From contig JACIVQ010000001.1 in the NCBI GenBank assembly GCA_014361445.1, positions 10,174 through 74,173 on the forward strand: a stretch of DNA of 64,000 nt, given 5' to 3'. How positions within the stretch are numbered: the stretch's first letter is position 1; every line of letters starts with the position of its first letter. The stretch is from Methanosuratincolales archaeon. Lineage in GTDB: Archaea > Thermoproteota > Methanomethylicia > Methanomethylicales > Methanomethylicaceae. Shown piece after piece: positions 4,654-62,734 of the stretch. The notes beneath the pieces are model-generated. The model had not been told where the DNA came from. It saw nothing but the letters and a program-made list of their open reading frames with translations, and ran no database searches. A program made the translations under genes and the position numbers.

Positions 4654-5403
4654 TTGATACGTGTGTCAGAAGGGGAGGTTTTACGGATTCTGAGGGGTTG
4701 TGGGCTCACCGAGACCGAGGCGAAGGTTTATCTGGCACTGATAAAAGGCAGAGGGGACGCCAAGGAGATCAGCGCGAGGAGCAAGGTCCCATACAGCAAG
4801 ATACACACGGTTTTGACCAGCCTACAGGAGAAGTCGCTGATTACGGCATCGAGCGACAGACCCACCATCTACTCTGCCAAGAGCGTGGGCGAGGGGCTCG
4901 GCGAGTACAAGATCCAGATGCAGAAGGAGATAGAGGAGGCTTTCAAAAGGGCGGAGCAGGTACTGACGGCAATACAGGGAGAGCCCGAGAAGTCAGATAT
5001 CTGGATAATAAAGAGCGGTAATGAGATCTTGAGCAAGGCTTATCAGATGCTCAGGACGGCTAGGAGGGGCGTGAAGCTTGCGTTGCCTGTATTACCAGAG
5101 TGGCTGAGTGATGAGATCCTGCCCGTTCTGACGAGGCTGAGGGCTCAGCAGGTTGAAGTGAACATGCTGGTGACAAAGAACGTCAGTAAAGAAACGATCC
5201 AAAAACTATCTGGACTTTCCACAGTGAGGAGCAGAGACAAGATGTTTGGAGGAGGGATTATTGTAGACGATGCAGAGGTCATGTTGTTCATAGGCGGTAG
5301 CGAGGGTGTGATGGGCACTGCCATTTGGGCAAGCCACCCGGGCTTGGTTCAGCTCGCCAGTACCTACTTTGACTTTTTGTGGGCAGGCTCAGAAGCACCA
5401 TGA
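4654..5403 (+). CDS. TrmB-family transcriptional regulator
   Basis: N-terminal winged HTH (L..CGLTETEAKVYLALIKGRGDAKEIS..SKVPYSKIHTVLTSLQEKSLI) with a C-terminal effector-type domain. ~250 aa. Confidence 0.6.
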   Translation: MIRVSEGEVLRILRGCGLTETEAKVYLALIKGRGDAKEISARSKVPYSKIHTVLTSLQEKSLITASSDRPTIYSAKSVGEGLGEYKIQMQKEIEEAFKRAEQVLTAIQGEPEKSDIWIIKSGNEILSKAYQMLRTARRGVKLALPVLPEWLSDEILPVLTRLRAQQVEVNMLVTKNVSKETIQKLSGLSTVRSRDKMFGGGIIVDDAEVMLFIGGSEGVMGTAIWASHPGLVQLASTYFDFLWAGSEAP

Positions 5404-6131
5404 GTCTTCATTGGTACCAAGCCACCCCGCTCTATGGTGAAGTAGTGCCAGATTGTGTCGTGTATGGCGCCCTTCATCTTCCTCACGCGGAGCTGTCTCG
5501 CCAATAACCCCTGCTGGGCAAGCAACGGATCGAATCGGAAGTCTATTATCCCATCCACAAGGTAATCGATCATGGCAGCAAACTCGTCTATTGATTTCAA
5601 GCCTATGTGGTAAGTTGCGAAGATCGGGATGCCCATCATCTTGCAGAACTCAGCCCTCCAGTTCTTGACGGTCTCAAGGGTGGATGTGGGCTCGCTGATG
5701 GTGAAGAACTCTGTCAGGGAGTCAATAAATATGGTACCCTTCCCCTCCATGCCCTCTGCTGTGGAGAGGAGCGTGCCCGTGAGCTCGTGGTGGTCCTTTG
5801 GGTTCTGGACTATGCGAATGCCCTCTGTGGGCTTGGGCTGGGTCCTTGCCCTGAAAGAGAAGCAGTCCACTATCCGGAGCACATTATTTGCCAAAGCCCC
5901 GCGGACCTCGTAGCCGAGGCGTAAGAAGTTGTTTACTATCGATGAGGGGCTATCGTCGAATGTCACGAAGATGCACGGTTCGCCGAGCCTTATCCTGGTC
6001 CCTGCGGCCTGGGCGATTGCGACGGACTTGCCAGTCCCTCCTTCCCCGAAGAGGAGTACAAAGCTGTTCCTCGGCATGCCGTCTGGTAGGAGGGAATCTA
6101 TCATGGGGATTCCTAAAGTGATGTATGACAT
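5364..6131 (-). CDS. KaiC/RadB-like RecA-superfamily ATPase
   Basis: Walker A LFGEGGTGKS. Single KaiC-like domain, 255 aa. Confidence 0.6.
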   Translation of the reverse strand: MSYITLGIPMIDSLLPDGMPRNSFVLLFGEGGTGKSVAIAQAAGTRIRLGEPCIFVTFDDSPSSIVNNFLRLGYEVRGALANNVLRIVDCFSFRARTQPKPTEGIRIVQNPKDHHELTGTLLSTAEGMEGKGTIFIDSLTEFFTISEPTSTLETVKNWRAEFCKMMGIPIFATYHIGLKSIDEFAAMIDYLVDGIIDFRFDPLLAQQGLLARQLRVRKMKGAIHDTIWHYFTIERGGLVPMKTHGASEPAHKKSK

Positions 6132-6315
6132 ATGGCTTCAACGCTTTAATTTTGTGGCTTCTTGCTTAAAAACAAGACCTTTTTTTGGCTCTGTTTTATA
6201 AGAATAATAATTCAACTAATGATTAAAATTAATGATTTTGTAAAAATGACAATTTAAAAGAAAAATATAATAATCCCCATTTTGAACTCTATCGGTATTA
6301 ATTGGAGGGTTTTCG

Positions 6316-7290
6316 TTGGCTAAAAATGGAAAGAGGATTTTGGTTGCCCTAGGTGGCAACGCGATAAAGCAGGCACATGAAAAAGGAACAGCTGAAGAGC
6401 AGTTCAGGAACGTGTACACCACAGCCAAGCACTTGGTGAATATGATAGAACATCTAGGGAAGGACGACAGGCTCATAATAACACACGGCAACGGTCCCCA
6501 GGCGGGGAACTTGGCGCTTCAGCAAGACATAGCTAAAGACGTGGTGCCGCCTCAGCCTCTGGACGTCGTGGGCGCAATGACACAGGGGCAGATAGGCTAC
6601 ATGCTCCAGCAGTGTTTAGAGAATATAATGATGGAGAAGGGCATGAAGGTCCCAGTAGTCGCCATAGTCAATCAGGTGCTGGTGGATAAAAACGACCCCG
6701 AGTTCTTTGGTGAGAACGCCTCGAAGCCGGTGGGCAACTTCCTGACAGAGGAAGAGGCCATGAAGATGAAGGCGGAGAAAGGCTGGATCGTGAAGAAGGT
6801 GAAGCCCAATGCGCCAAAGCCATGGAGGAGGGTCGTCCCGTCCCCAGACCCGATCGCAAATGTTGAGGCAGATGTCATAAAGATACTCGTGGACTCTGGA
6901 GTGGTCGTTATTGCATCAGGAGGTGGAGGGATCCCAGTCATAAAGGAGGACGGGAGGCTGGTGGGCGTCGAGGCTGTCATCGACAAGGACCTGGCAGGGG
7001 AGAGGCTAGCAGAGGTCGTGGAGGCAGACATATTCCTGATATTGACTGATGTGGAGAAGGCAAAGCTGAACTTTGGGAAGCCCGACGAGAAGGAGATCGA
7101 CAGGATGACGGTCTCGGAGGCGAAGAAATACCTCGCAGAAGGGCACTTCCTCCCTGGCAGCATGGGACCTAAGGTTAAGGCCTGCATAAGGTTCCTGGAG
7201 TGGGGAGGAAAAGAGGCGATAATAACATCGCTGGACAAGGCTGTAGAAGCGCTTGAAGGGAGAACCGGCACTCATATTGTGAAGGATTAG
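6316..7290 (+). CDS. arcC: carbamate kinase
   Basis: KRILVALGGNA...HGNGPQ(A)G... and a C-terminal ASGGGGIPV motif across the full length of the carbamate kinase family. 324 aa. TTG start with an AT-rich promoter just upstream. Confidence 0.85.
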   Translation: MAKNGKRILVALGGNAIKQAHEKGTAEEQFRNVYTTAKHLVNMIEHLGKDDRLIITHGNGPQAGNLALQQDIAKDVVPPQPLDVVGAMTQGQIGYMLQQCLENIMMEKGMKVPVVAIVNQVLVDKNDPEFFGENASKPVGNFLTEEEAMKMKAEKGWIVKKVKPNAPKPWRRVVPSPDPIANVEADVIKILVDSGVVVIASGGGGIPVIKEDGRLVGVEAVIDKDLAGERLAEVVEADIFLILTDVEKAKLNFGKPDEKEIDRMTVSEAKKYLAEGHFLPGSMGPKVKACIRFLEWGGKEAIITSLDKAVEALEGRTGTHIVKD

Positions 7291-7586
7291 CTTTGGGCTC
7301 TGGTCTGATGTCACACTTCATCCTTTTTTGTCCGTAATACCAGCACTCATCATAGCCCAATTATCCTAACACTTATTTTTTTAATAAACTTGACGGACCG
7401 TTCAAAAGGTTTATTAAGATCCATAATAATAATTGGATGGACAATCCGTCCATATAGTGTCATCTCACCCACCAAATTTTTCTACTTTTTTGGGTCAGTA
7501 AGTAGGACAATTGAGTAGTTTAGGCTCTGACCACACTCCTGCCGATAAGGTTAAAACGGGCAATATTTTATAGATATAAAATACTG

Positions 7587-8663
7587 GTGATAGTGTTGTC
7601 GATTAAGGTTGCCATAGTGGGTGTGGGTAACTGTGCATCAGCCTTGGTCCAAGGGACTTATTTCTACAGGGATGCGCCCGAGGACAGAGAGATACCAGGG
7701 CTTTTACACGTCAACATGGGAGGATACCACGTAAAGGATATAGAGTTTGTGGCGGCCTTCGATGTTGACGCCAATAAGGTAGGCAAAGACCTATCAGAGG
7801 CGATATTTGCAAAGCCGAACAACACAAGGAAGTTCTGCGATGTGCCAAAGATTGGGGTTACAGTAAAAAAGGGGCCTGTTATGGACGGTCTGGGCAAGTA
7901 CCTCAAGGAGTTCTTGACCGTAAGCGAGGAGGAGCCCGTGGATGTAGCAGAGGAGTTGAAGAGATCTGGGGTGGAGGTTGTTGTGAACTACCTGCCTGTG
8001 GGCTCTGAGCAGGCAGTGAGGTGGTACGCGGAGGAGGCGATCAAGGCGGGTTGCGCCTTTGTGAACTGCATGCCAGTCTTCATAGCTTCTGATGAGTCGT
8101 GGCAGAAGAAGTTCGCGGATAAGAACCTGCCAGTGGCTGGGGACGACGTAATGAGCCAGCTGGGGGCAACAGTGTTGCACAAGACCATCGCCAAGCTGAT
8201 GGTCGACAGAGGGGTGAGGATAACCGAGAGTTACCAGCTGAACATAGGAGGCGACACTGACTTTTTGAACATGCTAGAGGAGGCGCGCCTGGTCTCGAAG
8301 AGGATAAGCAAGACTTCTGCCGTCCAGGCAATGATCCCATACGATATACCCCTGAGGATCGGACCTTCGGACTATGTCGAATTCCTCGATAACAAGAAGA
8401 TCTGCTACATCTACATAAAAGGGGAGTATTTCGGAGGGACTCCGGTTCAAGTGGATGTAAAGCTGGATGTGTGGGACGCACCGAATAGCGGCGGGGTAGT
8501 GATAGATGTGATAAGGGCATGCAAGATCGCATTGGACAGGGGCATATCAGGGCCGCTCATAAGCGCCTCAGCTTTCGCATTCAAGCACCCACCACAGCAG
8601 ATGCCTTACGAGGTTGCTAAGAGGTGTTTTGAGGAGTTCATAGAGGGTAAAAGGGAGAGGTAG
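7587..8663 (+). CDS. ino1: myo-inositol-1-phosphate synthase
   Basis: The N-terminus VAIVGVGNCASALVQG...PGLLHV..GYHVKDIEFVAAFDVDANKVGKDLSEAIFA is near-identical in pattern to bacterial and archaeal Ino1 (M. tuberculosis type). A TATA-like element lies at 7566-7582, so the start may be a few codons downstream. Confidence 0.85.
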   Translation: MIVLSIKVAIVGVGNCASALVQGTYFYRDAPEDREIPGLLHVNMGGYHVKDIEFVAAFDVDANKVGKDLSEAIFAKPNNTRKFCDVPKIGVTVKKGPVMDGLGKYLKEFLTVSEEEPVDVAEELKRSGVEVVVNYLPVGSEQAVRWYAEEAIKAGCAFVNCMPVFIASDESWQKKFADKNLPVAGDDVMSQLGATVLHKTIAKLMVDRGVRITESYQLNIGGDTDFLNMLEEARLVSKRISKTSAVQAMIPYDIPLRIGPSDYVEFLDNKKICYIYIKGEYFGGTPVQVDVKLDVWDAPNSGGVVIDVIRACKIALDRGISGPLISASAFAFKHPPQQMPYEVAKRCFEEFIEGKRER

Positions 8664-8763
8664 AGCTGGTAGAGATTTTTACTAGTATTTAATTTTTTGT
8701 AAGAAATTCTTTGAGAAATAAACAAAACAATAAACAAAAAACAAAAACAAAAAAATAAAAAAG

Positions 8764-9075
8764 TTATGGAGTAGGTACAACGGACCTTCCTGAGAACCTT
8801 ATAGCCTCTGCGGCGTTGTCTGGCTTAATCTCGAATGCAAAAGGCCGCTCGCACCACCAGTACTTCTGAGCTTTATCCTCCTTGTAGTATGGGCATATCG
8901 GGCAGCACTTTGCCTCAAGCTTCAGAAGGTACCAGATTGGTGGAGCCTCGTCTGAGGGATAGCTCTTCTGCGGCCAAGGTTTCTCCTTTGAGACGTAGCC
9001 TGGGCACTTCGGGCTTACCCTGGGCTCTTGGTTCAGGATGTTCTTATATTCTGGACATAATATGCAGCATGGCAT
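8764..9075 (-). CDS. hypothetical Cys-rich small protein (103 aa, ~9 Cys) at the 3' end of the pyrimidine-catabolism operon
   Basis: ORF immediately downstream of the YgeW-like gene on the same strand. CC..C, CPGY and CCPICPY clusters. No family recognised. Confidence 0.35.
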   Translation of the reverse strand: MPCCILCPEYKNILNQEPRVSPKCPGYVSKEKPWPQKSYPSDEAPPIWYLLKLEAKCCPICPYYKEDKAQKYWWCERPFAFEIKPDNAAEAIRFSGRSVVPTP

Positions 9076-9088
9076 TGGATTTACCCCC

Positions 9089-10216
9089 TTACCTCCTTCC
9101 TCCCATTGTCAGTGCCATAATGCCCTTCTGTCCGTGTAGCCTGTTCTCAGCCTCGTCCACCGAGACAGACCATCTGTTGGAGAAGATCACTTCGGGTTCC
9201 ACTTCATAGCCAACATCGGCAGGTAGGCAGTGCATCCAGATGCTGTTCTTGCGAGTCCTGTCCATAAGCTCGGGCGTAGTCTTCCAAGCAGCGAGGTTGT
9301 GGGTCCTCTTGTACTCCTCGTGGAGCTTCTCGTCGTAGCCCCCAGCCTTCAGGAGCTCCCAGCTGCACCATCCCTTCGGATAGACCACGAGAGCGTCCTC
9401 GAATGCCTCTTCCATGCTGTGGACTATCTCGAACTTCGTGCCGTACTGGTCGGCGAGCTTTTTAGTATACTCCTCGACAGCAGGGTCCAGGTTGAATTTC
9501 TCTGGGTATGCTAGAGTGACGTCCATCTGGAGGAGTCTTGTGAAGAAGATTATGTTTGTCTGGGGGACTGCCACCGGCTTCCATGCGCCAGGGCTGTTGG
9601 CATAGCACATAACAAACTTCTTTCCTCTTAGGCTCCTGGCATTATATTTCTCTATCACAGTCATGATATCCGCGACGCCTTGACATGGGTGCCACATATC
9701 GCACTCCATATTAATCACAGGTACGGTTGAGGCCTTGGCGTACTCCCTCATTGTGAGGTTGCCCTCTCCGTAGTACTGACCCTTCACGTATCTCCTTATG
9801 GCTATACCGTCGCACATCCTGCTCATGATGGCGGCGGTCTCATAGATGGTTTCACCATGGGTTATCTGTAGCTTTCCGGGGTCCAAATCGTATGCTACGC
9901 CTCCAAGCTGAGTAATCCCTGTAATAAAGGACGACCTAGTTCTCGTGGAAGGGTTGAAGAACAACGTAAATAGCGACTTCCCTTTGCAGATGTTGTCGTG
10001 TCGCTGTCCCATTGCATATTGCCTTTTTAGGTCGAAGGAGACATCCAATACTGTCCAAAGCTCTTCGTCACTCCATTCTATCTCGGGAGCTATCCAGTGT
10101 TTCCCATGGAGTTCTGTTTTTACCAAATATCTCCCTCCGAGTTTTTGCTGGAATTGGGTATAAATTTTTGGTTTAATAATGCTTTCGCGAGGGTTAGAGG
10201 AAACTATCACAAACAA
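9089..10216 (-). CDS. YgeW-family (knotted) carbamoyltransferase; putative catabolic transcarbamylase
   Basis: 375 aa. STRTR carbamoyl-phosphate motif, and ITHGETIYETAAIMSRMCDGIAIR compared with YgeW IAHGETVRETANMISFCADAIGIR. Also MDVTLAYPE, SMEEAF.DA.VVYPKGW and HCLPA. HPCQ replaces HPTQ. The length and the extra segments are as in E. coli YgeW. Confidence 0.8.
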   Translation of the reverse strand: MFVIVSSNPRESIIKPKIYTQFQQKLGGRYLVKTELHGKHWIAPEIEWSDEELWTVLDVSFDLKRQYAMGQRHDNICKGKSLFTLFFNPSTRTRSSFITGITQLGGVAYDLDPGKLQITHGETIYETAAIMSRMCDGIAIRRYVKGQYYGEGNLTMREYAKASTVPVINMECDMWHPCQGVADIMTVIEKYNARSLRGKKFVMCYANSPGAWKPVAVPQTNIIFFTRLLQMDVTLAYPEKFNLDPAVEEYTKKLADQYGTKFEIVHSMEEAFEDALVVYPKGWCSWELLKAGGYDEKLHEEYKRTHNLAAWKTTPELMDRTRKNSIWMHCLPADVGYEVEPEVIFSNRWSVSVDEAENRLHGQKGIMALTMGGRR

Positions 10217-10224
10217 AAAAGAGG

Positions 10225-11604
10225 TTAGTTTAAGGGCTGGTACTTTCCTCTTGGGACGAACTTGCCCGTGCCCTTCTTGCCGACAAACTCCCTGTTGTAT
10301 ACGACGGGTTTGCCCCTCACAAAGACATGAATAGGCATACCCTTGACTTTGACCCCCTCGTATATGGAGTAGTCGATCCTCGAGTGGAGGTTCTCCTGGC
10401 TCAGCTCCATCTCGAAGTCTGGGTCGAAGACGACTATGTCTGCATCGCTGCCCACGTTCAGCGTGCCCTTCCTTGGATATAAACCGAAGAGCTTTGCCGG
10501 GTTGTAAGAGACCACCTCTACGAGCTTATTCAAGGATATCCTGTTCTTGGAAACGCCTTCGCTGTAGAGTATAGGGATCATGGTCTCTGTGCCAGGAACA
10601 CCGTTAGGAACCTTGGTGAAGTTGTCTTTCCCAAGGTCCTTCTGGGCGTCTGTGAATGTGCAGTGATCGGTTGCGACTGTGCTCAGCGTGCCATTTGCGA
10701 GCCCCTCCCAGAGGGCTTCGTTGTCTGCTTTACCCCTCAAAGGAGGCGACATTATATACCGCCTCCCCTTCGGCGATAGGTATTTCTCGTCGGTGAGTAT
10801 GAGGTAGTGGGGGCACGTCTCCCCATACAGGTTCGAATAGAGCTTCTTCATCCTTGAGAGCTCGGCTACGCCCTCCTTTGTAGACATGTGCACGATGTAA
10901 AGGTTCCCCCCGGCGGCTGCTGCCAGCGCCAGACCCCTGTGGACAGCCTCGCCCTCAACGAAGTTCGGTCTGCTCTTTGCGTGGTACTCCGCGGATAGCT
11001 TTCCCAAGGAGACATATCGCTCTATTAGGAGTTCCAGAACAGAGTTGTTCTCGGCATGTAGCTGGACCAAGAACCCGAGTCTTCGGCTCTCTTCCAACAT
11101 CCTGTATATCCTGCCATCGTCGCTCATCAGACCCTCCTTTCTGTATGGCATGAAGAGCTTGAAGCTTGAGACCCCAGCCTCGAGGACCTTGGGGATCTCT
11201 TTGACCAGGTCTTCCGTTAAGTTTGTCACAGCCACGTGGATCCCATAATCCACAACCACTTTGGGGTCAGCCTTGCCCCTCCAGAGGGATATGGTCTCCA
11301 AGAATGTTTTGTCCTTCGGCTGTATCGCGAAGTCCAGAATTGTGGTAACACCACCAAAAGCTGCTGCAATTGTGCCGTACTCAAAGTCGTCGACTGTAGT
11401 GGTTCCCATGAAAGGCATTTCCATGTGGGTGTGGGCGTCTATGCCCCCAGGCATAACATACTTGCCTGAGGCGTCCACGACCTCCTGCGCCTTTTCAGTG
11501 ATGTTTGAGGCGATTGCCACTATCTTGCCGTCTTTCACTCCGATGTCTGCTTTGAAGGTGTCCTTTGGGGTTACAATGGTTCCGTTCTTTATTAATAAGT
11601 CCAT
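10225..11604 (-). CDS. dht: dihydropyrimidinase / D-hydantoinase
   Basis: 459 aa cyclic amidohydrolase. N-terminal LLIKNGTIV...GKI.AI....DA.G..V.PGGID.HTH metal-binding motif and full-length similarity to the hydantoinase family. Confidence 0.9.
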   Translation of the reverse strand: MDLLIKNGTIVTPKDTFKADIGVKDGKIVAIASNITEKAQEVVDASGKYVMPGGIDAHTHMEMPFMGTTTVDDFEYGTIAAAFGGVTTILDFAIQPKDKTFLETISLWRGKADPKVVVDYGIHVAVTNLTEDLVKEIPKVLEAGVSSFKLFMPYRKEGLMSDDGRIYRMLEESRRLGFLVQLHAENNSVLELLIERYVSLGKLSAEYHAKSRPNFVEGEAVHRGLALAAAAGGNLYIVHMSTKEGVAELSRMKKLYSNLYGETCPHYLILTDEKYLSPKGRRYIMSPPLRGKADNEALWEGLANGTLSTVATDHCTFTDAQKDLGKDNFTKVPNGVPGTETMIPILYSEGVSKNRISLNKLVEVVSYNPAKLFGLYPRKGTLNVGSDADIVVFDPDFEMELSQENLHSRIDYSIYEGVKVKGMPIHVFVRGKPVVYNREFVGKKGTGKFVPRGKYQPLN

Positions 11605-11653
11605 TATAAAGCCTCCAATATTAATATAGAAAAAGTGTTGTTTAAACGCTTGC

Positions 11654-12862
11654 CTATTTTGTGACTTTCTTCCATGTTATGCATCCAGGCACAGGGCATA
11701 GATGCGTACAGAGGGAGCATGCGTCGCACTTCTCCTCGTCGACCTCGGCGGCTTTTCCTTGCTCGAACTTTATCGCCTGGTACCCGCCATCGCGACATGC
11801 CACGTAGCAGAGACCGCACTTTATGCAAAGGTCCTTGTTGATGCTGGCAACGACCGTGTAGTCCTTGTTGAGCTTCGACCAAGCGGTCAGTTTGGGGAGG
11901 CTCTTCCCGATGATCTCGTTAACCGAGGAGAAGCCTTTGTCAGCAAGGTAGTTGGTGAGACCGTCAACGAAGTCGGAAATTATCCGGTAGCCCCTCCACA
12001 TCACCGCGGTGCAGACTTGGACGCTGCCTGCACCCACGAGGAGGTATTCAACAGCATCCTTCCAAGTAGTTATTCCACCTATCCCAGAGACGGGGATGTT
12101 AGTTGCCTGAGCTATCTGGGCGACGCACCTTAGTCCAATCGGCTTGACGCCTGGTCCCGATAGACCGCCGAAGGTGCTCATCCCGTCGACGGTGGGTATC
12201 GGCTCAAATGTATCTATGTTGATGCCTATTAGACCGAGTACAGTGTTTATGGCAGAGATGGCATCGGCTCCGGCTTCCTCTGCAGCCTTGGCGGTGTAGG
12301 CGATGTCTGTGACGTTCGGTGTTAGTTTCACCATTACAGGGACCGAGGATCCGCGCTTTGCTGCCTTTGTGAGCTTTTGGATGAGCTCGGTCCTTTGCCC
12401 GATGAAGGCGCCCATCCCCCGTTCAGGCATCCCGTGTGGGCAGCCGAAGTTCAGCTCAATCATATCCACGCCCGCCTCGCTCACGACCCTGGCAAGCTCC
12501 TCCCAGTCCTCCTCCTTGCACTCGGCCATGATGCTCCCTATGAGCGCCTTCTCGGGGAACTTTTTCTTGATCTCTTTGATCTCCTTCACCCATGTGCCGA
12601 CGGGCCTCTTTGAGACCTCTTCGATGTTTTCGAAGAGTATCATCTGCTTCGTCTCGAAGCCCATCACGCCAAACCTGTTCTTTAGATCGTAGACAGGGGT
12701 CTTGTCTGGCTTTATGGTCTTGGTGACAGCTCCAGCCCAACCAGCCTCGAATGCCCTCATTATCATCTCGCCAGTGCATGTAGGTGGCGCCGATGAGAGC
12801 ATGTATGGGTTCTCCAGCTCAAGGTTGCAGAATTTTACGGATATATCTGGTTTTGAAACCAT
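11654..12862 (-). CDS. preA: dihydropyrimidine dehydrogenase subunit PreA-like (DHODH-fold with C-terminal 2x[4Fe-4S] ferredoxin domain)
   Basis: Collinear with E. coli PreA ([23 protein letters not shown]...). C-terminal CIKCGLCYVACRDGG and CDACSLCTHLCPV ferredoxin motifs. 402 aa. Confidence 0.85.
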   Translation of the reverse strand: MVSKPDISVKFCNLELENPYMLSSAPPTCTGEMIMRAFEAGWAGAVTKTIKPDKTPVYDLKNRFGVMGFETKQMILFENIEEVSKRPVGTWVKEIKEIKKKFPEKALIGSIMAECKEEDWEELARVVSEAGVDMIELNFGCPHGMPERGMGAFIGQRTELIQKLTKAAKRGSSVPVMVKLTPNVTDIAYTAKAAEEAGADAISAINTVLGLIGINIDTFEPIPTVDGMSTFGGLSGPGVKPIGLRCVAQIAQATNIPVSGIGGITTWKDAVEYLLVGAGSVQVCTAVMWRGYRIISDFVDGLTNYLADKGFSSVNEIIGKSLPKLTAWSKLNKDYTVVASINKDLCIKCGLCYVACRDGGYQAIKFEQGKAAEVDEEKCDACSLCTHLCPVPGCITWKKVTK

Positions 12863-12883
12863 ATTTTCTCACTTCCATAACTA

Positions 12884-14245
12884 CTATTTCTTTGAACTCT
12901 TACCTCCGGAGAGGAACTTGTCAATGGCAGCTGCAGCCTTCTTACCCTCAGCCACAGCCTCAACGACGGTCTCGCCGCCGTTTACGGCGTCGCCGCCCGC
13001 AAATATGCCCTTTATGGATGTGGAGAAGTTCTCGTCCACAACGATCAGCCCTTTCTCTGTCTTGACGCCATAGGACTTTAGAAGGTCTTCGTCCGGCTTC
13101 TGCCCTATCGCAACTATAACCGAGTCCACATCCAGGCGGAACTCCGAGCCCTTTATGGACCTTACGCCCCTCCTCCCAGAGGAGTCTGGCTCGGTGAGCT
13201 CCATCTTAACGCACTCAATCGCTTTGACGCTCTTGTCTCCTATTATCCGGACCGGGGCTGTGAGTAAGAGGAACTCCACGCCCTCCTCCCTCGCTTGGTT
13301 CCTGCCGTAGGGTACTGCGGGCATCTCGGCGAAGGATCTCCTGTAGACGATGTAGACCCTTTCGGCACCGAGCCTCACAGAGGCACAGGCTGCGTCTATG
13401 GCGGTGTCTCCGCCGCCTATCACGGCGACCCGCTTTCCCTTGAGGTCGGGCGCCTTCCCCTCTCCCATCAACCATTTTGCCACAGATTGTAGGAATTCCT
13501 GTGCGGGGTAAACACCATTTAGCTCCTCGCCGGGTATCCCGAGCTTCTGGGACTTTGTTGCGCCCACGCCAACGAAGACAGCGTCATACTCCTTAAGAAG
13601 TGGCTTTAGGTCGGTAATTTTCCTGTTTGTGACGAAATTAATGCCATACTCCTTTATGAGATCGATCTCAGACTCGGGAACAGACCAGGGTGCCTTCCAA
13701 GGAAGGATGCCGTAGAGCAGAAGGCCTCCGGGTCTTGGGTTTGCATCGAAGACCGTGACGCTGTAGCCCATTCGGGCGAGCTCGTATGCTGCCGAGAGAC
13801 CGGCGGGACCAGCACCCACAACTGCAACCTTCTTGTCCTTGGATCGTGATTTCGGGAATTTCACGAGACCCTTGAGCTTCTCTTTCTCGTAGGCGAACCT
13901 CTGGAGCATAGATATAGCCACAGGCTCCTCGTTCAAGTTCCTCCTTACGCACTTGGACTCGCAGAGGCGCTCAACTGGACAGACGTAGCCGCATTCCCCT
14001 CCTAAGATGTTGCTCTCGCGTATGACTTTGGCAGCCCCATAGAAGTTTCCAGTTTTTATGCGGTATATGAACTCGGGGATGTTGATCCCAGCTGGGCAAG
14101 CCGAGATGCACGGAGCGTCGAAGCACATAAGGCACCTTGAGGCTTCGTACACAGCAAGCCTGTCGTCGAGGTTTGAGACGTATGGAGCGAAGCCAGAGAT
14201 CCTCTCATGCGGAGGAATAGTTTTAGTATGGACTCTACCTGACAT
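12884..14245 (-). CDS. preT: dihydropyrimidine dehydrogenase subunit PreT-like (GltD-like FAD/NAD(P) oxidoreductase with N-terminal Fe-S domain)
   Basis: EASRCLMCFDAPCISACPAG...ECGYVCP..LCESKC N-terminus, VAVVGAGPAGLSAAYELARMGYSVTVFD dinucleotide fold and C-terminal GGDTA. Its size matches PreT rather than the large YgfK/GltB proteins. Confidence 0.8.
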   Translation of the reverse strand: MSGRVHTKTIPPHERISGFAPYVSNLDDRLAVYEASRCLMCFDAPCISACPAGINIPEFIYRIKTGNFYGAAKVIRESNILGGECGYVCPVERLCESKCVRRNLNEEPVAISMLQRFAYEKEKLKGLVKFPKSRSKDKKVAVVGAGPAGLSAAYELARMGYSVTVFDANPRPGGLLLYGILPWKAPWSVPESEIDLIKEYGINFVTNRKITDLKPLLKEYDAVFVGVGATKSQKLGIPGEELNGVYPAQEFLQSVAKWLMGEGKAPDLKGKRVAVIGGGDTAIDAACASVRLGAERVYIVYRRSFAEMPAVPYGRNQAREEGVEFLLLTAPVRIIGDKSVKAIECVKMELTEPDSSGRRGVRSIKGSEFRLDVDSVIVAIGQKPDEDLLKSYGVKTEKGLIVVDENFSTSIKGIFAGGDAVNGGETVVEAVAEGKKAAAAIDKFLSGGKSSKK

Positions 14246-14311
14246 AGAACTCGCTCCTTAGAGGATTAACGATTAATAAGGGGTTTTAATTAAGGCTTTC
14301 GTGATAGAATT

Positions 14312-15001
14312 ATGAATTGTCCAAAGAGAATGGTCGTTAAGGGAATCGTGTTCGATCTTGACGGTACATTAGTAGACTCTATAGATTCTATTTGGAAGGC
14401 TTCTGAATATGTACTAAAGATTAACGGTTACCGCGGGATAGACCGCCAGGATGTGGTAGAGGCCATGGGCAAGACCATATTTGACTTATTTTTGAGGGTC
14501 GAGCCAGGTCTGAGTCATAAGGAGCAGCAGAAGCTATTCGAGGACTACAGGAGAGTCTATATGGATTTCATAGCGCATACGAGACTGATCCCCAGGGTTA
14601 AGGAAACCTTGGCAGTTTTGAGGGGGAGAAGGTTAAAGATGGCGGTCGTCACAACAAAGAGCAAGCAGAATGCTGAGAAGATCCTTTCGTTTTTTGGCAT
14701 AAGGGGCTTCTTTGATGTGGTTATAGGCTTCGAGGATGTGAAGGAGCATAAGCCTTCCATAGAGCCAATAATAAGGGCGGCAGAAGGGCTTAACCTCCAA
14801 GCCTCAGAGTTGGTTGTTGTCGGCGACACTCACATAGACGTCAAAGCTGGGAGGGAGGCAGGCGCATTAACAGTTGCGGTTAAAACTGGCGTGACGCCCC
14901 TGGAGAGGATTACGGCGGAGAGACCAGACTTTTTGATCGATGATGTCTCCAGTCTACCTGAGGTGTTGGAGCAGAATGGGCTCATCAGTATCGGGGACTG
15001 A
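14312..15001 (+). CDS. HAD-superfamily hydrolase (phosphatase, PGP/PpaX-like)
   Basis: DLDGTL motif I, S/T motif II, K and a DD motif near the C-terminus. 229 aa. Confidence 0.75.
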   Translation: MNCPKRMVVKGIVFDLDGTLVDSIDSIWKASEYVLKINGYRGIDRQDVVEAMGKTIFDLFLRVEPGLSHKEQQKLFEDYRRVYMDFIAHTRLIPRVKETLAVLRGRRLKMAVVTTKSKQNAEKILSFFGIRGFFDVVIGFEDVKEHKPSIEPIIRAAEGLNLQASELVVVGDTHIDVKAGREAGALTVAVKTGVTPLERITAERPDFLIDDVSSLPEVLEQNGLISIGD

Positions 15002-16280
15002 TGTTCTTTAGGATCTCGTCGAACACCTCAACAGCGGTGTCAATATGCTCACGGGTCAGAACTAATGGTGGCTCTATTCTTATGACGTTCCCCTCCAAAC
15101 CTCCGAGGCCCACAAGTATCTTTTTCTTCCACGCCTCTTGCAAGAATCTTACGGCTTCCTCCCTTGCTGGCACCTTTGTGGATCTCTCTTTAACGAGCTC
15201 GACCCCTAAGAAGAGACCGACGCCTCTCACGTCTCCTACAATCTCGTATCTCTCCTGCAGCGATTCCAGCCTGCGCTTGAAGTATGCGCCGTTCTCTTTT
15301 ACCTTATCCATGAGCCCACTTGTCAGCTCTTCCAGAACGGCCTCTGCGGCAGCGCATGCGAGAGCATTCCCGCCCAGCGTGGAGTAGTGCTCCCCTGGTC
15401 TGAGGGCAGAGTCGAGCTCTTCTCTGTAGATGGTCACACCGAGTGGAAGACCGTTTGCTATAGCCTTCGATGTGGTCATCACGTCTGGTACAACCCCATA
15501 GTGCTCAATCCCCCAAAGCTTGCCGGTCCGACCATTCCCAGACTGGACTTCGTCCGCAATGAAAAGTATGGAGTACCTGTCCAGCACCCGCTTAACCTCC
15601 TTAAAATAATCAGAGGGGGGTATGATCATGCCACCATTAGCTAGCATGGGTTCCGCTAAAAGTGCAGAGATAGAGTCCCCTCCAACCTCGCATTTAATTA
15701 CGTCTTCCATGTACTTTACGCAGGCGAATCCGCATTCAGGACAGCTTTTGTGGCCGAGCGGGCACCTGTAGCAATAAGGATCAGGCGCAAACACCACTGG
15801 CGCGAATGGACCAAGCCCAACCTTCCAGTTTGACTGCCCCAACGCACTCATGGCGTAAAACGTCCTGCCGTGAAAAGACCGGTGGAGTGCCATTATGTAG
15901 GGTCTTTTCTTGACGCGCTTAACGAGGGAGATTGCGGTCTCGTTTGCCTCTGATCCGCTATTCGTGAAGAAGGTCTTGGTGAGTGCGCCCCCGGGGGAGA
16001 GTTCGGAGAGCCTCTTTGCAAGTTTTGCCGTGTACTCCAAGTAGTATAGTGAAGAAGTGTGGAACAACTTTTGCATCTGAGCTTGAACTGCCTTGATTAC
16101 TCTTTGGTTCGACCATCCCACATTAACTATGGAGACGCCAGCGTATAGGTCAATATAGGCCTCCCCCTCGATAGAGTAAACGATGTCGTCAACAGCCCTG
16201 TCCGGGACAAAGGGGTAGTAATGCCTGTACATGCGCGAGAGGTATCGGTCGGAGAGGTCGATTACATCTTTAGGGTTCAT
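14985..16280 (-). CDS. class-III (omega) aminotransferase, PLP-dependent; candidate beta-alanine/4-aminobutyrate aminotransferase
   Basis: 431 aa. GSEANE..., the DEVQSG.GRTGK PLP-lysine region and TTSKAIANG. The beta-alanine role is inferred from the neighbouring pyrimidine-catabolism genes only. Confidence 0.8.
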   Translation of the reverse strand: MNPKDVIDLSDRYLSRMYRHYYPFVPDRAVDDIVYSIEGEAYIDLYAGVSIVNVGWSNQRVIKAVQAQMQKLFHTSSLYYLEYTAKLAKRLSELSPGGALTKTFFTNSGSEANETAISLVKRVKKRPYIMALHRSFHGRTFYAMSALGQSNWKVGLGPFAPVVFAPDPYCYRCPLGHKSCPECGFACVKYMEDVIKCEVGGDSISALLAEPMLANGGMIIPPSDYFKEVKRVLDRYSILFIADEVQSGNGRTGKLWGIEHYGVVPDVMTTSKAIANGLPLGVTIYREELDSALRPGEHYSTLGGNALACAAAEAVLEELTSGLMDKVKENGAYFKRRLESLQERYEIVGDVRGVGLFLGVELVKERSTKVPAREEAVRFLQEAWKKKILVGLGGLEGNVIRIEPPLVLTREHIDTAVEVFDEILKNISPRY

Positions 16281-16336
16281 AAAACCACTCAGGGATAAAA
16301 AAAGTGCATGGATCTATAAATAATGATTTGGGGGGC

Positions 16337-16681
16337 TCATTTGGGAGGCGCATTGACGGCGATGAGCCAGAGAGGGGTCTTTCCGATGTTCTTTATGGAG
16401 TGTGGAACGTTTGGTGGGAAGACCAGCGCGTTTCCTGTCTTAACCTTGTACTCCTCGTTTCCTATGGTGACCAGCGCCCTCCCCTTCAATATGTAGTAAG
16501 CCTGTTCGAAGGGATGGGTGTGGGGGTCTGCCCTCCCGCCCACCTCAAACTCTGACCTGAACATGGAGAGGTTTTTGCACCCCACGTTAGCTTCCTCCAG
16601 CAGGACTCTAGTGATACATCCGTAGTGTAGTGGGGGCACGAAGGTCCGTGCTTCTTTAGGATCTATAACACGCTTCGTCAT
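16337..16681 (-). CDS. cupin-domain protein
   Basis: 114 aa. The H.H...E...H cupin metal motif (PHTHPFEQAYYILKG...PPNVPHS). Directly upstream of, and co-oriented with, the aminotransferase. Confidence 0.7.
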   Translation of the reverse strand: MTKRVIDPKEARTFVPPLHYGCITRVLLEEANVGCKNLSMFRSEFEVGGRADPHTHPFEQAYYILKGRALVTIGNEEYKVKTGNALVFPPNVPHSIKNIGKTPLWLIAVNAPPK

Positions 16682-20726: not shown

Positions 20727-21359
20727 TTGAGCAAGGTTCAACTTGAGGCACTCAAGGAGGCTCTGATCGAGCAGAATCAAAAGAGGGCGAAAGATCTCAC
20801 AGAGGAATTTTTGCGAGCAGGTGTGCCGCCAAAGGATATAATTGATGTGATATCTGACGGGCTAAAGGTAATTGGAGACTTATTTGAGAGGGGAGAGCTC
20901 TTCCTGCCAGAGGTCATGAGGGCAGCAAACGCCGCCAAGGCCTCATTGAGCGTCGTATTGCCAATGATGGTGAAGGAGAAGGCGGGAGAGGGGCGGGGAG
21001 TGATCGCGATAGGCTCGCTAGGACCGCACGACATAGGGAAGACCATTGTATCCTCTACGCTGATCGCAGATGGTTTCAAGGTGTTGGACATGGGCATAAA
21101 CGTGACGCCGAATGTTGTGGAGGACTTTTTGAGAGATAATGAGGTGGATATACTCGCCCTCTCAATCCTCCTCACCTCTGACATAGATAAATGTGCTAAC
21201 GTGATAGAGAGGGCAAGGAAGGTTAAGAGCGGAATTAAGGTGATGGTTGGGGGCGCAGCCATGAGCCCGGAGACGGCAAGAAAGATAAAGGCAGACGCAT
21301 ACGGTAGAGACGCAAACGAGGCGGTTAAGATAGCAAGGGAACTAACCGGGAGGAGGTAG
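20727..21359 (+). CDS. corrinoid (cobalamin-binding) protein, methyltransferase-associated type
   Basis: N-terminal helical B12-binding-2 domain plus a Rossmann B12-binding domain with GSLGPHDIGKTIV (DxHxxG-like) and MVGGAA. 210 aa. Confidence 0.75.
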   Translation: MSKVQLEALKEALIEQNQKRAKDLTEEFLRAGVPPKDIIDVISDGLKVIGDLFERGELFLPEVMRAANAAKASLSVVLPMMVKEKAGEGRGVIAIGSLGPHDIGKTIVSSTLIADGFKVLDMGINVTPNVVEDFLRDNEVDILALSILLTSDIDKCANVIERARKVKSGIKVMVGGAAMSPETARKIKADAYGRDANEAVKIARELTGRR

Positions 21360-21364
21360 AGAGA

Positions 21365-22246
21365 ATGAAGACAACAGTCATTGGTAGCTACCCAGTTGTC
21401 GGCGAGGGGCTGGAGGCTATAAAAAACGCGGTGAATGACCAGCTAAATGCGGGGATCGAGATAATCAGCGACGGGCAGACAAGGAAGGACATGGTATGTT
21501 ACTTTGCGGACCATATACCCGGGTTCAAGGTCGAGGATGAGAAGGCGAAGATAGTTGGAAAGATAAGACCGCCAGAAGAGACGCCAGTGGTTGATGACCT
21601 GATATTTGCCAGGGAGCTGGCAGGAGGTAAGGCTGAGGTGAAAGCAATAATTACGGGCCCGGTCACAATAGTCTTCTTTTCAGAGCTGACCCCAGAGGCC
21701 CCCTACGCAGGGTTTCGGGACGAGAGACTGTATGAGGACGTGAGCGCAGCCCTGGCAGTGGAGGCGGAGATCATGCAAAAATCGGGCTTTTCTAAGGTTC
21801 AGATAGACGAGCCCAGTTTCTCAATCGGGGCCCCCATGAACATAGGGAGGAAGGCGCTCGAGGCGATCGTGTCAGACTTGAAAGGGATTAAGGCGTTACA
21901 TGTCTGTGGTAACCTTAGGAGGGTCTTTAAGGAGATAGTGAAGATAGAGGGCTTTGATGTTCTGAGCTTCTCGTTCAAAGACAATGTGAGTAATTTTGAC
22001 AATGTTGAGAGGAAACTTCTGGAGGATTATTCAAAGAGGCTGGGCGTGGGGTGTGTAAGTACGATGAGCCCCGAAGCGGAGGACGTAGAGTCTATCAAGA
22101 AGGTGCTGAGTAGGGCGCTGGAGTTGTACGGAGTGGAAAACATAGAGTGGATCCACCCTGATTGTGGGCTGAGATCATTGAAGAGGGATGAGGCTTTCGT
22201 GAAGCTCAAGAATATGGTTATAGCGGCGAAGGAGCTGAGGATCTGA
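21365..22246 (+). CDS. metE: core methionine synthase (cobalamin-independent MetE C-terminal-domain type, zinc site intact)
   Basis: MKTTVIGSYP start typical of archaeal short MetE. Zn-ligand motifs VQIDEPSFS, ALHVCGN (His-x-Cys) and IHPDCGL are all present. 293 aa. Confidence 0.75.
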   Translation: MKTTVIGSYPVVGEGLEAIKNAVNDQLNAGIEIISDGQTRKDMVCYFADHIPGFKVEDEKAKIVGKIRPPEETPVVDDLIFARELAGGKAEVKAIITGPVTIVFFSELTPEAPYAGFRDERLYEDVSAALAVEAEIMQKSGFSKVQIDEPSFSIGAPMNIGRKALEAIVSDLKGIKALHVCGNLRRVFKEIVKIEGFDVLSFSFKDNVSNFDNVERKLLEDYSKRLGVGCVSTMSPEAEDVESIKKVLSRALELYGVENIEWIHPDCGLRSLKRDEAFVKLKNMVIAAKELRI

Positions 22247-23118
22247 TGGTGGAAGTTCGTTTGGGGAATATCAAATTTGGCGACGTTCCGGTCATGATAG
22301 GCAGCCTCTTCTACAAATCGGACAGAAAAGTCATAGACCACAAAAAAGGCGAGGTGAACATGCAGGCACTTCTGAAAGAGCTGAAGAGCGTGGAGAGACT
22401 GAAAGAGAGAACAGGGCTGCTCCACGCCATAGACATAATAGCAGAGACTCCGGAGGCGATGGATAGGTACATAACCATCCTTTCGGAGGCAAGTGATGAC
22501 CCATTGCTCATTGGCGGACTAAATGAAGAGAGCAGGATTGCTGGCTATAAAAAGGCATCCGAGTTGGGTCTGGCGGGCAGGTGTGGGGTAAACTCGGTCT
22601 CCCTAAACACGAGTGAAATGGAGCTCGAGCGCATAAAGGAGAGCGGGATAAGATTTGCGATAGTTCAAACATTGGACCCTGCGGCGGTTTACCCTGAGGA
22701 GAAGCTTGGGGTTTTGAAGGGAGGACTCCTGGAGAGGTGCAGGAATGCAGGCATTACCAGCATGGCCGTAGATGTAGGTATAATAGATTTCACAAGCGTC
22801 TGGCTAGCGGCAGAGTCCATAAAGGCTGTTAAGAATGAATTGGGACTGCCAGCAGGGTGTGCGCCTTCCAATATCGCATACCAGCCGCTATTGAAGAAGA
22901 AGGTTACAAAGAGAGTTGCGAGATCCATGAATGTGGCGCTCAATACCATTATACAGATCGCAGGGGCGGACTTCATACTATACGGACCGCTTAAGGCGGC
23001 AGGGTACATATTCGAGGCAGCAGCCACCGTTGAAGGCATAAAGGCTTACGGGGAAAGGTTGAAGGGGAAGGTCTTTGAGAAGAGCCACCCACTTTATAAG
23101 TTCCTAGCGAAACTGTGA
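22246..23118 (+). CDS. MtrH-like pterin (methyl-H4F/H4MPT):corrinoid methyltransferase
   Basis: Collinear with MtrH: VPVMIGSLFY compared with PTVLVGTIFY, GGADFILYGPLKAAGYIFEAA compared with GGDFVLYGPIENAKMAF, and C-terminal EKSHPLYKFL compared with EEHPFYKLL. Confidence 0.7.
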   Translation: MVEVRLGNIKFGDVPVMIGSLFYKSDRKVIDHKKGEVNMQALLKELKSVERLKERTGLLHAIDIIAETPEAMDRYITILSEASDDPLLIGGLNEESRIAGYKKASELGLAGRCGVNSVSLNTSEMELERIKESGIRFAIVQTLDPAAVYPEEKLGVLKGGLLERCRNAGITSMAVDVGIIDFTSVWLAAESIKAVKNELGLPAGCAPSNIAYQPLLKKKVTKRVARSMNVALNTIIQIAGADFILYGPLKAAGYIFEAAATVEGIKAYGERLKGKVFEKSHPLYKFLAKL

Positions 23119-36085: not shown

Positions 36086-36589
36086 TTAGAGATCTAAAGG
36101 ATAAACATCTTCGATCCTCTGGGAGAACGGTTTCTTCTTATGAATCATAATCTCCTTTGTTCTTATCAGGGGGTGAGTATAGTCTACCTCTGGGCGACTC
36201 ATTATTATCTCGTCGGCCAACCTCTCTAAGCTGTAGACGTCTTTCTCTTCGATTACTACGACCATATGATGGAATCCTGTACAGAGCCAGACGCTCTCGA
36301 CTTGCGGGTGTTTTAATAACTCCTCGGCCAACCTCTCTCTCGTCCCTGGCGGTACTCCTGCTTTAAGGTTGAAAGCTATATCTGAGACTTGCCTGCCAAG
36401 TTTGTAGTAGTTTATATTACATGTTGGGTCTATGATCTTCTCATCAATTAACCTATTTACTCTCGCTGCTACGGCTGGGACGCTCAGCCCAAGTCTATTG
36501 GAGATTTCACTATAGGGCGTCCTCGCATTGGCAATCAAAATTCTTATTATTTCTTTATCTATTTTGTCAACTAAGCTCTTTCTGCCCAT
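36086..36589 (-). CDS. lrp: Lrp/AsnC-family transcriptional regulator
   Basis: N-terminal HTH (IDKEIIRILIANARTPYSEISNRLGLSVPAVAARVNRL) plus a C-terminal RAM domain. Confidence 0.85.
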   Translation of the reverse strand: MGRKSLVDKIDKEIIRILIANARTPYSEISNRLGLSVPAVAARVNRLIDEKIIDPTCNINYYKLGRQVSDIAFNLKAGVPPGTRERLAEELLKHPQVESVWLCTGFHHMVVVIEEKDVYSLERLADEIIMSRPEVDYTHPLIRTKEIMIHKKKPFSQRIEDVYPLDL

Positions 36590-48556: not shown

Positions 48557-48575
48557 GGAGACACAGATCTTGTAC

Positions 48576-62262: not shown

Positions 62263-62266
62263 CTCT

Positions 62267-62734
62267 CTATTCTATAACTACCAACGGGTCTCCAACATTT
62301 ACAAATTTGCCTGGCTGAACCTTGATCTCTTTTACAGTGCCAGCCCTATTTGACTTGATTGGGTTCTCCATCTTCATAGTCTCCAGCGTGAGTAACACGT
62401 CGCCTTCCTTAACGGCGTCACCCACTTTAACTTTCAAAGTCATTACCGTGCCGGGCATGGCAGCCTTTATCGTGCCACCCACAGCGGCTGTTGCCCCAGG
62501 AATTCCAGCAACGCCACTTGTAGCGCCTGTTGCAGCTGCCGCCTGTACCGAGGGCGAGAGCATATCAGCTATGCTGATCTTAAAGGTCTCGTCGTTGACT
62601 TTTACATCGTAGAGACCGTAAGCCTTCTCCTCTATGTTGACGTCGTACTTCACATTACCTATGTTGAGCTGGAACTTATTGATCTTGGACATTGGCATCA
62701 CCTGGCACTTCTTAATCTGCCTGACAAGACCCAT
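62267..62734 (-). CDS. accB: biotin carboxyl carrier protein
   Basis: C-terminal biotinyl domain with an E(T)MKM motif ([10 protein letters not shown]). The true start is possibly internal. Confidence 0.8.

Follow-up and report, generated by a model that had tools for sequence, protein, structure and literature searches.

In the reductive degradation of uric acid, the transcarbamylase YgeW phosphorolyses the 2-ureido group of the compound that HyuA makes from 5-ureidomethylhydantoin, giving albizziin and carbamoyl phosphate (PMC12507026, 2025). This result settled the substrate of YgeW, which an earlier interpretation of the DNA described here (the sequence-only reading) had treated as not firmly established. 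A catabolic transcarbamylase acting on beta-alanine is also not a new idea, since a 2015 review of transcarbamylases named it as one that "remains to be proven" (PMC4581275). Here, we describe a locus in a 64,000-nucleotide stretch of DNA (the window) from a Methanosuratincolales archaeon of the Methanomethylicia (contig JACIVQ010000001.1, positions 10,174 to 74,173 of the forward strand). At this locus, a carbamoyltransferase (the transcarbamylase) is encoded in one operon with enzymes of pyrimidine reduction and ring opening. Judging from gene context, we give a probability of roughly 0.55 that the locus serves a reductive pyrimidine degradation in which N-carbamoyl-beta-alanine is cleaved by phosphorolysis and ATP is gained from this step.

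The operon and the proposed route

Gene families were assigned by Pfam and NCBIfam profile scans, with the curated NCBIfam thresholds serving as equivalog cut-offs. A single minus-strand operon begins with a PreT-like (GltD-like) FAD/NAD(P)-binding subunit with two [4Fe-4S] clusters (12884-14245), which is assigned at the domain level only (Fer4_20 and Pyr_redox_2). It is followed by PreA, the catalytic FMN subunit of dihydropyrimidine dehydrogenase (11654-12862; NF006183, 543 bits against a cut-off of 335), and by a dihydropyrimidinase/D-hydantoinase (10225-11604; TIGR02033, 540 bits against 393). The transcarbamylase of 345 aa (9089-10126) comes next; it contains the OTCace_N and OTCace domains and reaches none of the NCBIfam equivalog cut-offs. 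The last gene is a Cys-rich open reading frame (ORF) of 103 aa with eight Cys (8764-9075). Carbamate kinase (6316-7290, plus strand) passes TIGR00746 with 411 bits against 358 and is 44% identical to E. coli YqeA. Its gene is convergent with the operon and lies 1.5 kb from the operon end, with an inositol-phosphate synthase gene in between. Divergent from the PreT gene is a HAD-IA phosphatase gene (14312-15001, plus strand; HAD_2, E = 1e-40, reaching no equivalog cut-off). Beyond it are genes for a class-III (omega-type) aminotransferase (14985-16280, minus strand; PF00202, 328 bits, below all NCBIfam equivalog cut-offs) and, upstream of the latter, a small cupin (16337-16681, minus strand; Cupin_2, E = 8.5e-19). 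The sequence-only reading had described the same operon and flanking genes, and the ORFs and strands agree with it. It was also right about carbamate kinase, although it had put this gene 2 kb away.

In the proposed route, PreT/PreA would reduce uracil or thymine to the dihydropyrimidine, and cytosine could enter via a nearby permease and cytosine deaminase. Ring opening by the dihydropyrimidinase would give N-carbamoyl-beta-alanine or N-carbamoyl-beta-aminoisobutyrate. The transcarbamylase would then move the carbamoyl group to phosphate, not to water, releasing beta-alanine and carbamoyl phosphate. Carbamate kinase would convert carbamoyl phosphate and ADP to ATP, CO2, and NH3, with a yield of one ATP per pyrimidine. 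The aminotransferase, whose nearest solved structure is Pyrococcus 7vno, is a candidate for the removal of beta-alanine. It would probably dispose of this product and thereby help to pull the unfavourable phosphorolysis forward. In bacterial clusters of the Pyd pathway of pyrimidine degradation, a class-III aminotransferase gene is adjacent, as it is at this locus. The HAD hydrolase is possibly a nucleotidase, with a weak link to the pathway.

The type of PreA, the lack of purine-route genes in the window, a nearby cytosine module, and three bacterial loci make pyrimidine degradation the best reading. Window PreA shares 43% identity with E. coli PreA and 31% with UacX of the purine route. It has the active-site loop with the catalytic Cys (ELNFGCPHGM; ECNFSCPQ in E. 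coli), which is deleted in UacX, and UacX reaches 202 bits on NF006183 against the cut-off of 335. By these features, the window protein is a true pyrimidine-type PreA. The PreT-like protein shares 35% identity with E. coli PreT across 444 aa and 33% with YgfK. PreA with a PreT-type partner, as well as a dihydropyrimidinase, as in the Pyd pathway, are thus present.

The cytosine module lies 20 kb from the operon. It comprises the cytosine deaminase gene codA (36672-37943, minus strand; NF006685, 526 bits against 483), an NCS1-family nucleobase permease gene divergent from it (38043-39479, plus strand; PF02133 Transp_cyt_pur, E = 3.5e-47), and an AsnC/Lrp-type regulator gene downstream of codA (36086-36589, minus strand). 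These genes resemble a module for cytosine uptake and deamination and could feed the operon. In the related archaeal locus L008, a gene for a permease of the same family (Transp_cyt_pur) is found approximately 5 kb from the operon.

The profile scans covered about 50 ORFs of at least 150 aa in the window that were judged to be real genes; some overlapping ORFs, mostly on the opposite strand, were left out. Neither CN_hydrolase nor Peptidase_M20 was found among the scanned ORFs, and tblastn of the window with the M20 protein YgeY of Peptostreptococcaceae gave no match. The claim that the window holds no beta-ureidopropionase of the nitrilase or M20 type therefore stands. SsnA, XdhD, YgeY, and YgeX of the purine route were also not found in the 64-kb window by tblastn with queries from the Peptostreptococcaceae locus L001, and the sole weak match to SsnA is the cytosine deaminase. 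With the L001 queries and E. coli proteins, no purine-route genes were found in the archaeal loci L007, L090, L100, and L101.

The block of cupin, aminotransferase, HAD hydrolase, PreT, PreA, dihydropyrimidinase, transcarbamylase, and Cys-rich ORF is kept in the archaeal relatives L007-L009, L100, and L101, whose transcarbamylases are 84-98% identical to that of the window. In L090, with a transcarbamylase of 74% identity, the cupin, dihydropyrimidinase, transcarbamylase, and Cys-rich ORF are kept, and carbamate kinase is immediately adjacent. The cupin gene is located there directly upstream of the dihydropyrimidinase gene, and its product is 64% identical to the window cupin. Because the block is kept at 84-98% transcarbamylase identity and its core at 74%, the gene arrangement is not due to chance. 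Carbamate kinase is near the operon in L007, L090, L100, and L101. The aminotransferase is syntenic in L007, L100, and L101 and absent near L090, and the HAD hydrolase is syntenic in close relatives only.

The Cys-rich ORF directly follows the transcarbamylase gene throughout the archaeal clade, with 83% identity in L007 and 47% in L090. Its product contains the motif CCxxCPxYK twice. A database search with it gave three close homologue clusters only, and the homologues are confined to close archaeal relatives. A Pfam scan even at E = 10 gave no match, and no PyrI-like zinc domain was detected. The protein could be a metal-binding partner or a regulator.

Linkage of PreT and PreA with a transcarbamylase of this kind is also seen in three bacterial loci, in none of which purine-route genes were found. 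L159 contains, in this order, genes for a dihydropyrimidinase (530 bits), Grd-like proteins, an ABC transporter, PreT, PreA (483 bits), the transcarbamylase, and carbamate kinase. This carbamate kinase falls just below the cut-off of TIGR00746 (351 bits against 358) and passes the subfamily model NF009007 (318 against 266). In L177, a GntR-transcarbamylase pair is divergent from PreA-PreT-dihydropyrimidinase (PreA 415 bits, dihydropyrimidinase 444). In L180, the order is GntR-PreT-PreA-transcarbamylase, and PreA is 42% identical to window PreA. The transcarbamylases of these loci belong to other subclades, are 43-45% identical to the window enzyme, and have their nearest relatives in other contexts. 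This linkage is therefore likely to have arisen, or to have persisted, more than once, through repeated recruitment or retention rather than as one inherited block.

L159 is a metagenome contig (Ga0180433_10005049, 1-16530) in which the pathway genes are interleaved with a glycine-reductase-type system. It is made up of a subunit resembling GrdG/FarE, a selenoprotein B of the GrdB family whose gene has an in-frame TGA (LTST*GTSTRCG), a gene resembling that of thioredoxin reductase, and component C beta. The ABC transporter encoded in L159 is of the NMT1 type. The Grd system might serve as a reductase for the beta-alanine produced, which would amount to a Stickland-like pyrimidine fermentation.

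The transcarbamylase and its family

The transcarbamylase gene starts with TTG at 10126, with GGAGGGAG just upstream and a TTTATA box about 35 nt upstream. The 345-aa product is identical to database protein P0001 from a metagenome-assembled genome of 'Candidatus Methanomethyliales'. A start at 10216, as assumed in the sequence-only reading, would add 30 unsupported residues. The protein matches PF02729 (E = 4e-36) and PF00185 (E = 1e-26), and it retains the motifs for carbamoyl phosphate (STRTR, HPCQ, HCLP, and AENRLH) intact. S60-T-R-T-R64, H146-P-C-Q149, H299-C-L-P302, and the R329 of AENRLH do not vary across the family alignment. By its domains and motifs, the protein is a member of the aspartate/ornithine transcarbamylase superfamily. 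An AlphaFold model built on 120 homologues has the transcarbamylase fold, with a mean pLDDT of 96.3. Foldseek finds structures of ornithine carbamoyltransferase (OTC, also OTCase), N-acetylornithine carbamoyltransferase (AOTCase), and YgeW about equally close to this model (TM 0.81-0.86), and so a fold comparison cannot discriminate the function.

On profile models, the enzyme falls short of each of these groups. Its best NCBIfam match is an OTC subfamily model (NF001986, 209 bits against a cut-off of 306), followed by the OTC model TIGR00658 (206 against 281), the YgeW model NF005538 (200 against 453), the AOTCase model (199 against 288), the second YgeW model TIGR03316 (191 against 500), and the model for putrescine transcarbamylase (PTCase; 176 against 500). 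The nearest solved structure by sequence is E. coli YgeW (3q98; 170 bits, 39% identity), with Pyrococcus OTCase and Xanthomonas AOTCase close behind. The ornithine-binding DxxxSMG loop is absent: the window enzyme has YPKGWCSW at this site, whereas Pyrococcus furiosus OTCase has YTDVWASM. For this reason, and with scores below the OTC cut-offs, the database annotation of the protein as an ornithine carbamoyltransferase can be set aside. Identity with YgeW at the equivalog level was also rejected, as both YgeW models failed and the context is not a uric-acid cluster; the earlier label of a YgeW-family enzyme is only approximate. The segment YANSPGAWKPVAVPQ of the window enzyme aligns with the proline-rich loop of YgeW, WAYSPSYGKPLSVPQ, and a trefoil knot formed from this loop is plausible.

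A database search with the transcarbamylase gave 7444 matches at E <= 0.001, which include ordinary transcarbamylases such as OTCases. Profile scans of genome contigs and of metagenome contigs with family alignments gave at least 600 matches each, mostly bacterial and 40-48% identical. On a hidden Markov model (HMM) of the family, members score 437-585 bits and OTCases at most 320. E. coli YgeW, with 288 bits, is no better than ordinary OTCases. By this gap, the window enzyme belongs to a distinct, unnamed family, separate from both YgeW and the OTCases, whose members the databases label as 'ornithine' or 'N-acetylornithine carbamoyltransferase'.

Bacterial family members at 40-55% identity are mostly found within reductive uric-acid clusters, in the place of YgeW. 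Purine-route genes (YgeY, SsnA, XdhD, YgfK/UacX) are present in 59 of the 136 examined loci with a family transcarbamylase, for example in L001, L003, L012, L041, and L168. In Peptostreptococcaceae AGR-M142, the cluster comprises, in this order, SsnA, YgeX, YgeY, the transcarbamylase, a 205-aa ORF, a xanthine permease, UacX, HyuA, and XdhD. In dozens of genome and metagenome loci, the M20 gene ygeY is directly upstream of the transcarbamylase gene and carbamate kinase is usually directly downstream, with SsnA, XdhD, and YgfK/UacX nearby. The family enzyme thus appears to fill the role of YgeW in many bacteria. Since it is found with carbamate kinase in the place of YgeW, and YgeW is a demonstrated ureido-acid phosphorylase, a catabolic and phosphorolytic role would be the norm of the family.

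Two subtypes are seen in the family. The Q-type is marked by NxQCD, LSVP, WGS, and a short loop and mostly occurs with YgeY. E-type enzymes, including the window enzyme (with WCS), have NMECD, VAVP, and a longer loop in the 110s. E-type enzymes are also present in purine loci with two or three transcarbamylases and carbamate kinase, so the substrate cannot be read from the subtype. The clade of the window enzyme differs from the YgeY-linked clade in E141, A186, and the longer 110s loop. These features were considered as markers of the pathway and rejected, as they also occur in the E-type enzymes of purine loci with two transcarbamylases and mark the subfamily only. Residue 254 lies in the loop equivalent to the SMG loop of OTCase. 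The position is occupied by Cys in the archaeal clade and the subclade of L177, L180, and L160, by Thr in the loci with two transcarbamylases, by Gly in the Q-type, and by Ala in YgeW and L159. The occurrence of Cys254 in both the archaeal clade and the L177/L180 subclade, though L159 lacks it, is a suggestive hint at specificity.

Two transcarbamylases occur with carbamate kinase in L021-L040, L110, L117, L124, L126, L133, L139, L148-L153, L158, L162, L163, L170, and L178, and L163 carries three. These loci are bacterial and of the purine type, often without the M20 gene ygeY. They pair the E-type with an 'IHPMPVDRG' type, or the Q-type with an ATCase-like type (LHSLP..R). Given two or three transcarbamylases with carbamate kinase, often in the absence of YgeY, phosphorolysis may serve to harvest both ureido groups of 2,3-diureidopropionate.

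Substrates other than those proposed here clearly exist for the family. P0094 and P0057, on sister branches, have arginase-family neighbours, so the function is not uniform across the family. On L096 and L098, from sister branches of the archaeal clade, the transcarbamylase gene adjoins those for ureohydrolases of the arginase family, luciferase-like oxidoreductases, aldehyde:ferredoxin oxidoreductase (AFOR), and an ABC transporter of the Bmp type. The nearest outgroup, L091 (53% transcarbamylase identity), is a contig of a methylotrophic archaeon with MtmB and MttB genes nearby. It encodes the transcarbamylase, a dihydropyrimidinase-like protein, AFOR, a PreA-like protein, and an ADP-forming acyl-CoA synthetase (5358-13044). 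The PreA-like and dihydropyrimidinase-like proteins are below the equivalog cut-offs, and L091 was not counted as firm support. It may represent a related but distinct heterocycle fermentation.

Alternative readings of the locus

Several points weigh against a pyrimidine route ending in phosphorolysis. The lack of a beta-ureidopropionase applies to the 64-kb window, and such an enzyme is possibly encoded elsewhere in the genome. The carbamate kinase gene is outside the operon, and none is found within 10 kb in L008. PreT/PreA is not encoded within 10 kb in L090. The transcarbamylase of L018 is 82% identical to that of L177, yet no PreT/PreA is encoded nearby. Near the operon, no gene was found that would account for the fate of malonate semialdehyde. 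A literature search, which largely leaves out subscription journals, found no characterised member of the transcarbamylase family. The closest bacterial relatives, judged by context, most plausibly cleave the alpha-ureido group of 2,3-diureidopropionate, not a beta-ureido acid. In addition, the equilibrium of transcarbamylases strongly favours carbamoylation, as is known from OTCase. The flux would therefore depend on product removal, as in the arginine deiminase route.

The alternative that survives best is one in which the dihydropyrimidinase, transcarbamylase, and carbamate kinase act on a hydantoin-type or purine-derived cyclic ureide, while PreT/PreA reduces a heterocycle other than uracil or thymine. 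The dihydropyrimidinase would act like HyuA, and the substrate phosphorolysed by the transcarbamylase would be an N-carbamoyl-alpha-amino acid, comparable to the 2,3-diureidopropionate of YgeW. We regard this as unlikely but serious, because most relatives in the family, including those in the 59 loci with purine-route genes, are located in purine clusters. The dihydropyrimidinase has Bacillus D-hydantoinase 1k1d as its nearest solved structure (477 bits) and is 38-39% identical to HyuA. HyuA itself passes TIGR02033 with 554 bits; the model does not separate dihydropyrimidinases from this hydantoinase, and so the assignment does not fix the substrate. The core of dihydropyrimidinase, transcarbamylase, and carbamate kinase could thus in principle be a hydantoin/purine module. 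L090, which keeps the core without PreT/PreA, and the outgroup L091, with its divergent PreA-like and dihydropyrimidinase-like genes, fit with it as well. However, the window and its syntenic relatives lack SsnA, XdhD, YgeY, and YgeX. PreA reaches its equivalog cut-off and keeps the catalytic loop that is missing from UacX, and CodA and a nucleobase permease are encoded nearby. Furthermore, L159, L177, and L180 combine a family transcarbamylase with PreA-type enzymes in the absence of purine-route genes.

The location of most relatives in purine clusters had not been noticed in the sequence-only reading. PreT/PreA and the dihydropyrimidinase had been said to define the first two steps of pyrimidine reduction; this holds for PreA, while the dihydropyrimidinase passes a model that HyuA also passes. 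The transcarbamylase and carbamate kinase had been proposed to replace beta-ureidopropionase. Comparative genomics lends support to this idea, although most relatives are found in purine clusters. Such transcarbamylases are linked with PreT/PreA in the archaeal relatives L007-L009, L100, and L101 and in L159, L177, and L180, and 59 of 136 loci are of the purine type.

In a second alternative, the transcarbamylase would be anabolic, for example a divergent OTCase, with carbamate kinase supplying carbamoyl phosphate as proposed for archaea that lack carbamoyl-phosphate synthetase (CPSase), and the pyrimidine-catabolic neighbours would be incidental. P0001 and its relatives are named 'ornithine carbamoyltransferase' in databases, and the best NCBIfam match is the OTC subfamily model at 209 bits. 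Thermococcales reportedly obtain carbamoyl phosphate by carbamate kinase and OTC-related chemistry (PMC13260591). We consider this alternative improbable. On the OTC models, the enzyme stays below both cut-offs, with 209 bits against 306 and 206 against 281, and it has YPKGWCSW in place of the ornithine-binding loop, and true OTCases form a separate group on the family HMM (at most 320 bits, against 437-585). Moreover, the adjacency of the transcarbamylase and dihydropyrimidinase genes is kept at 74-98% identity, and the linkage with PreT-PreA recurs in bacteria. The least probable alternative, to which we give hardly any weight, is a reverse route to uracil, in which carbamate kinase would make carbamoyl phosphate, the transcarbamylase would carbamoylate beta-alanine, the dihydropyrimidinase would catalyse ring closure, and dihydrouracil would be oxidised by PreT/PreA, in parallel with aspartate transcarbamylase (ATCase), dihydroorotase, and DHODH in the de novo pathway; three of the enzymes are indeed homologous to the de novo enzymes (Pfam OTCace, Amidohydro_1, and DHO_dh) and transcarbamylase equilibria favour carbamoylation, but ring closure and oxidation are the unfavourable directions, the nearby cytosine deaminase and uptake permease point to nucleobase consumption, the aminotransferase suits the disposal of beta-alanine, and L159 is embedded in a reductase/transport cluster typical of catabolism.

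The window contains several other groups of genes. Genes for a corrinoid protein and for Meth_synt_2 (MtaA-like) and MtrH-like methyltransferases are present at 20727-23118, and the same genes flank the operon in L007-L009. They fit with the methyl-reducing methanogenesis typical of Methanomethylicia. A complete shikimate/chorismate operon on the minus strand (42783-52420) extends from a split transketolase and DAHP synthase to chorismate synthase and a chorismate mutase-prephenate dehydratase fusion. Tetraether lipid synthase and RadA are also encoded, and together with the methyltransferase and shikimate genes they agree with the lineage of the archaeon. At 60676-63924, genes for biotin carboxylase, biotin carboxyl carrier protein, and carboxyltransferase form an acyl-CoA carboxylase or decarboxylase. 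A link of these genes to a malonate-semialdehyde/malonyl-CoA fate of beta-alanine is speculation.

Comparison with known transcarbamylase routes

Returning to the phosphorolytic pyrimidine route, a broader proposal can be made, which we offer tentatively and at somewhat less than even odds. The window enzyme and its PreT/PreA-linked bacterial counterparts would be the catabolic transcarbamylase for beta-alanine that has long been postulated, and its activity would be new among enzymes. With carbamate kinase, this transcarbamylase would support an ATP-yielding pyrimidine fermentation in Methanomethylicia and, separately, in anaerobic bacteria, and the Grd-like cluster of L159 might then reduce beta-alanine. 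In the full-text literature searched, no report of ureidopropionate phosphorolysis or of a beta-alanine transcarbamylase was found. If the proposal is true, the beta-ureido acids from pyrimidines join the small set of transcarbamylase/carbamate kinase routes with substrate-level ATP formation, and the prediction left open in the 2015 review (PMC4581275) is settled. A function would also be assigned in a large family that is now labelled as ornithine or N-acetylornithine carbamoyltransferases. Methanomethylicia, which are discussed mainly for methyl-reducing methanogenesis, would gain an ATP-yielding nucleobase fermentation as a side metabolism. The locus is therefore relevant to nucleobase catabolism, to transcarbamylases, and to the physiology of Methanomethylicia.

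The YgeW/YqeA system of E. coli (PMC12507026) is alike in that a transcarbamylase phosphorolyses a ureido acid delivered by an enzyme of the hydantoinase/dihydropyrimidinase family (HyuA), and carbamate kinase harvests the ATP. The motifs YPKxW and HCLPAD are common to YgeW and the window enzyme, as is the proline-rich loop WAYSP..KP..VPQ. The two enzymes differ in length (396 aa and 345 aa, respectively) and in context, as the window has PreT/PreA and lacks SsnA, XdhD, YgeY, and YgeX. The proposed substrate in the window is a beta-ureido acid, whereas that of YgeW is an alpha-ureido acid. The family transcarbamylases of bacterial purine clusters (for example L001, L003, and L041) are closer in sequence, being 43-55% identical and scoring 437-585 bits on the family HMM, and carbamate kinase is usually adjacent. 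Those with the M20 gene directly upstream are mostly Q-type, in contrast to the E-type window enzyme.

In the arginine and agmatine deiminase routes, a catabolic OTCase or PTCase acts with carbamate kinase, and likewise converts a ureido compound and phosphate to an amine and carbamoyl phosphate, from which ATP is made. However, the window enzyme is of another subfamily, lacks the SMG loop, and is below the OTC and PTC cut-offs, and its ureido substrate would come from reductive opening of a pyrimidine ring. The Pyd pathway consists of PydA (PreT/PreA), PydB (dihydropyrimidinase), PydC (beta-ureidopropionase), and PydD (aminotransferase), and the first two enzymes are shared with the window at the equivalog level. 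The window lacks PydC of either type and instead has the transcarbamylase after the dihydropyrimidinase, with carbamate kinase nearby. The last step would be phosphorolytic and ATP-yielding, whereas the canonical one is hydrolytic. The locus follows the logic of systems in which a catabolic OTCase, PTCase, UGTCase, or YgeW is combined with carbamate kinase, and its upstream half is the standard Pyd pathway. The new part would be the junction of the two, with a beta-ureido acid as the substrate of a phosphorolysis that replaces PydC.

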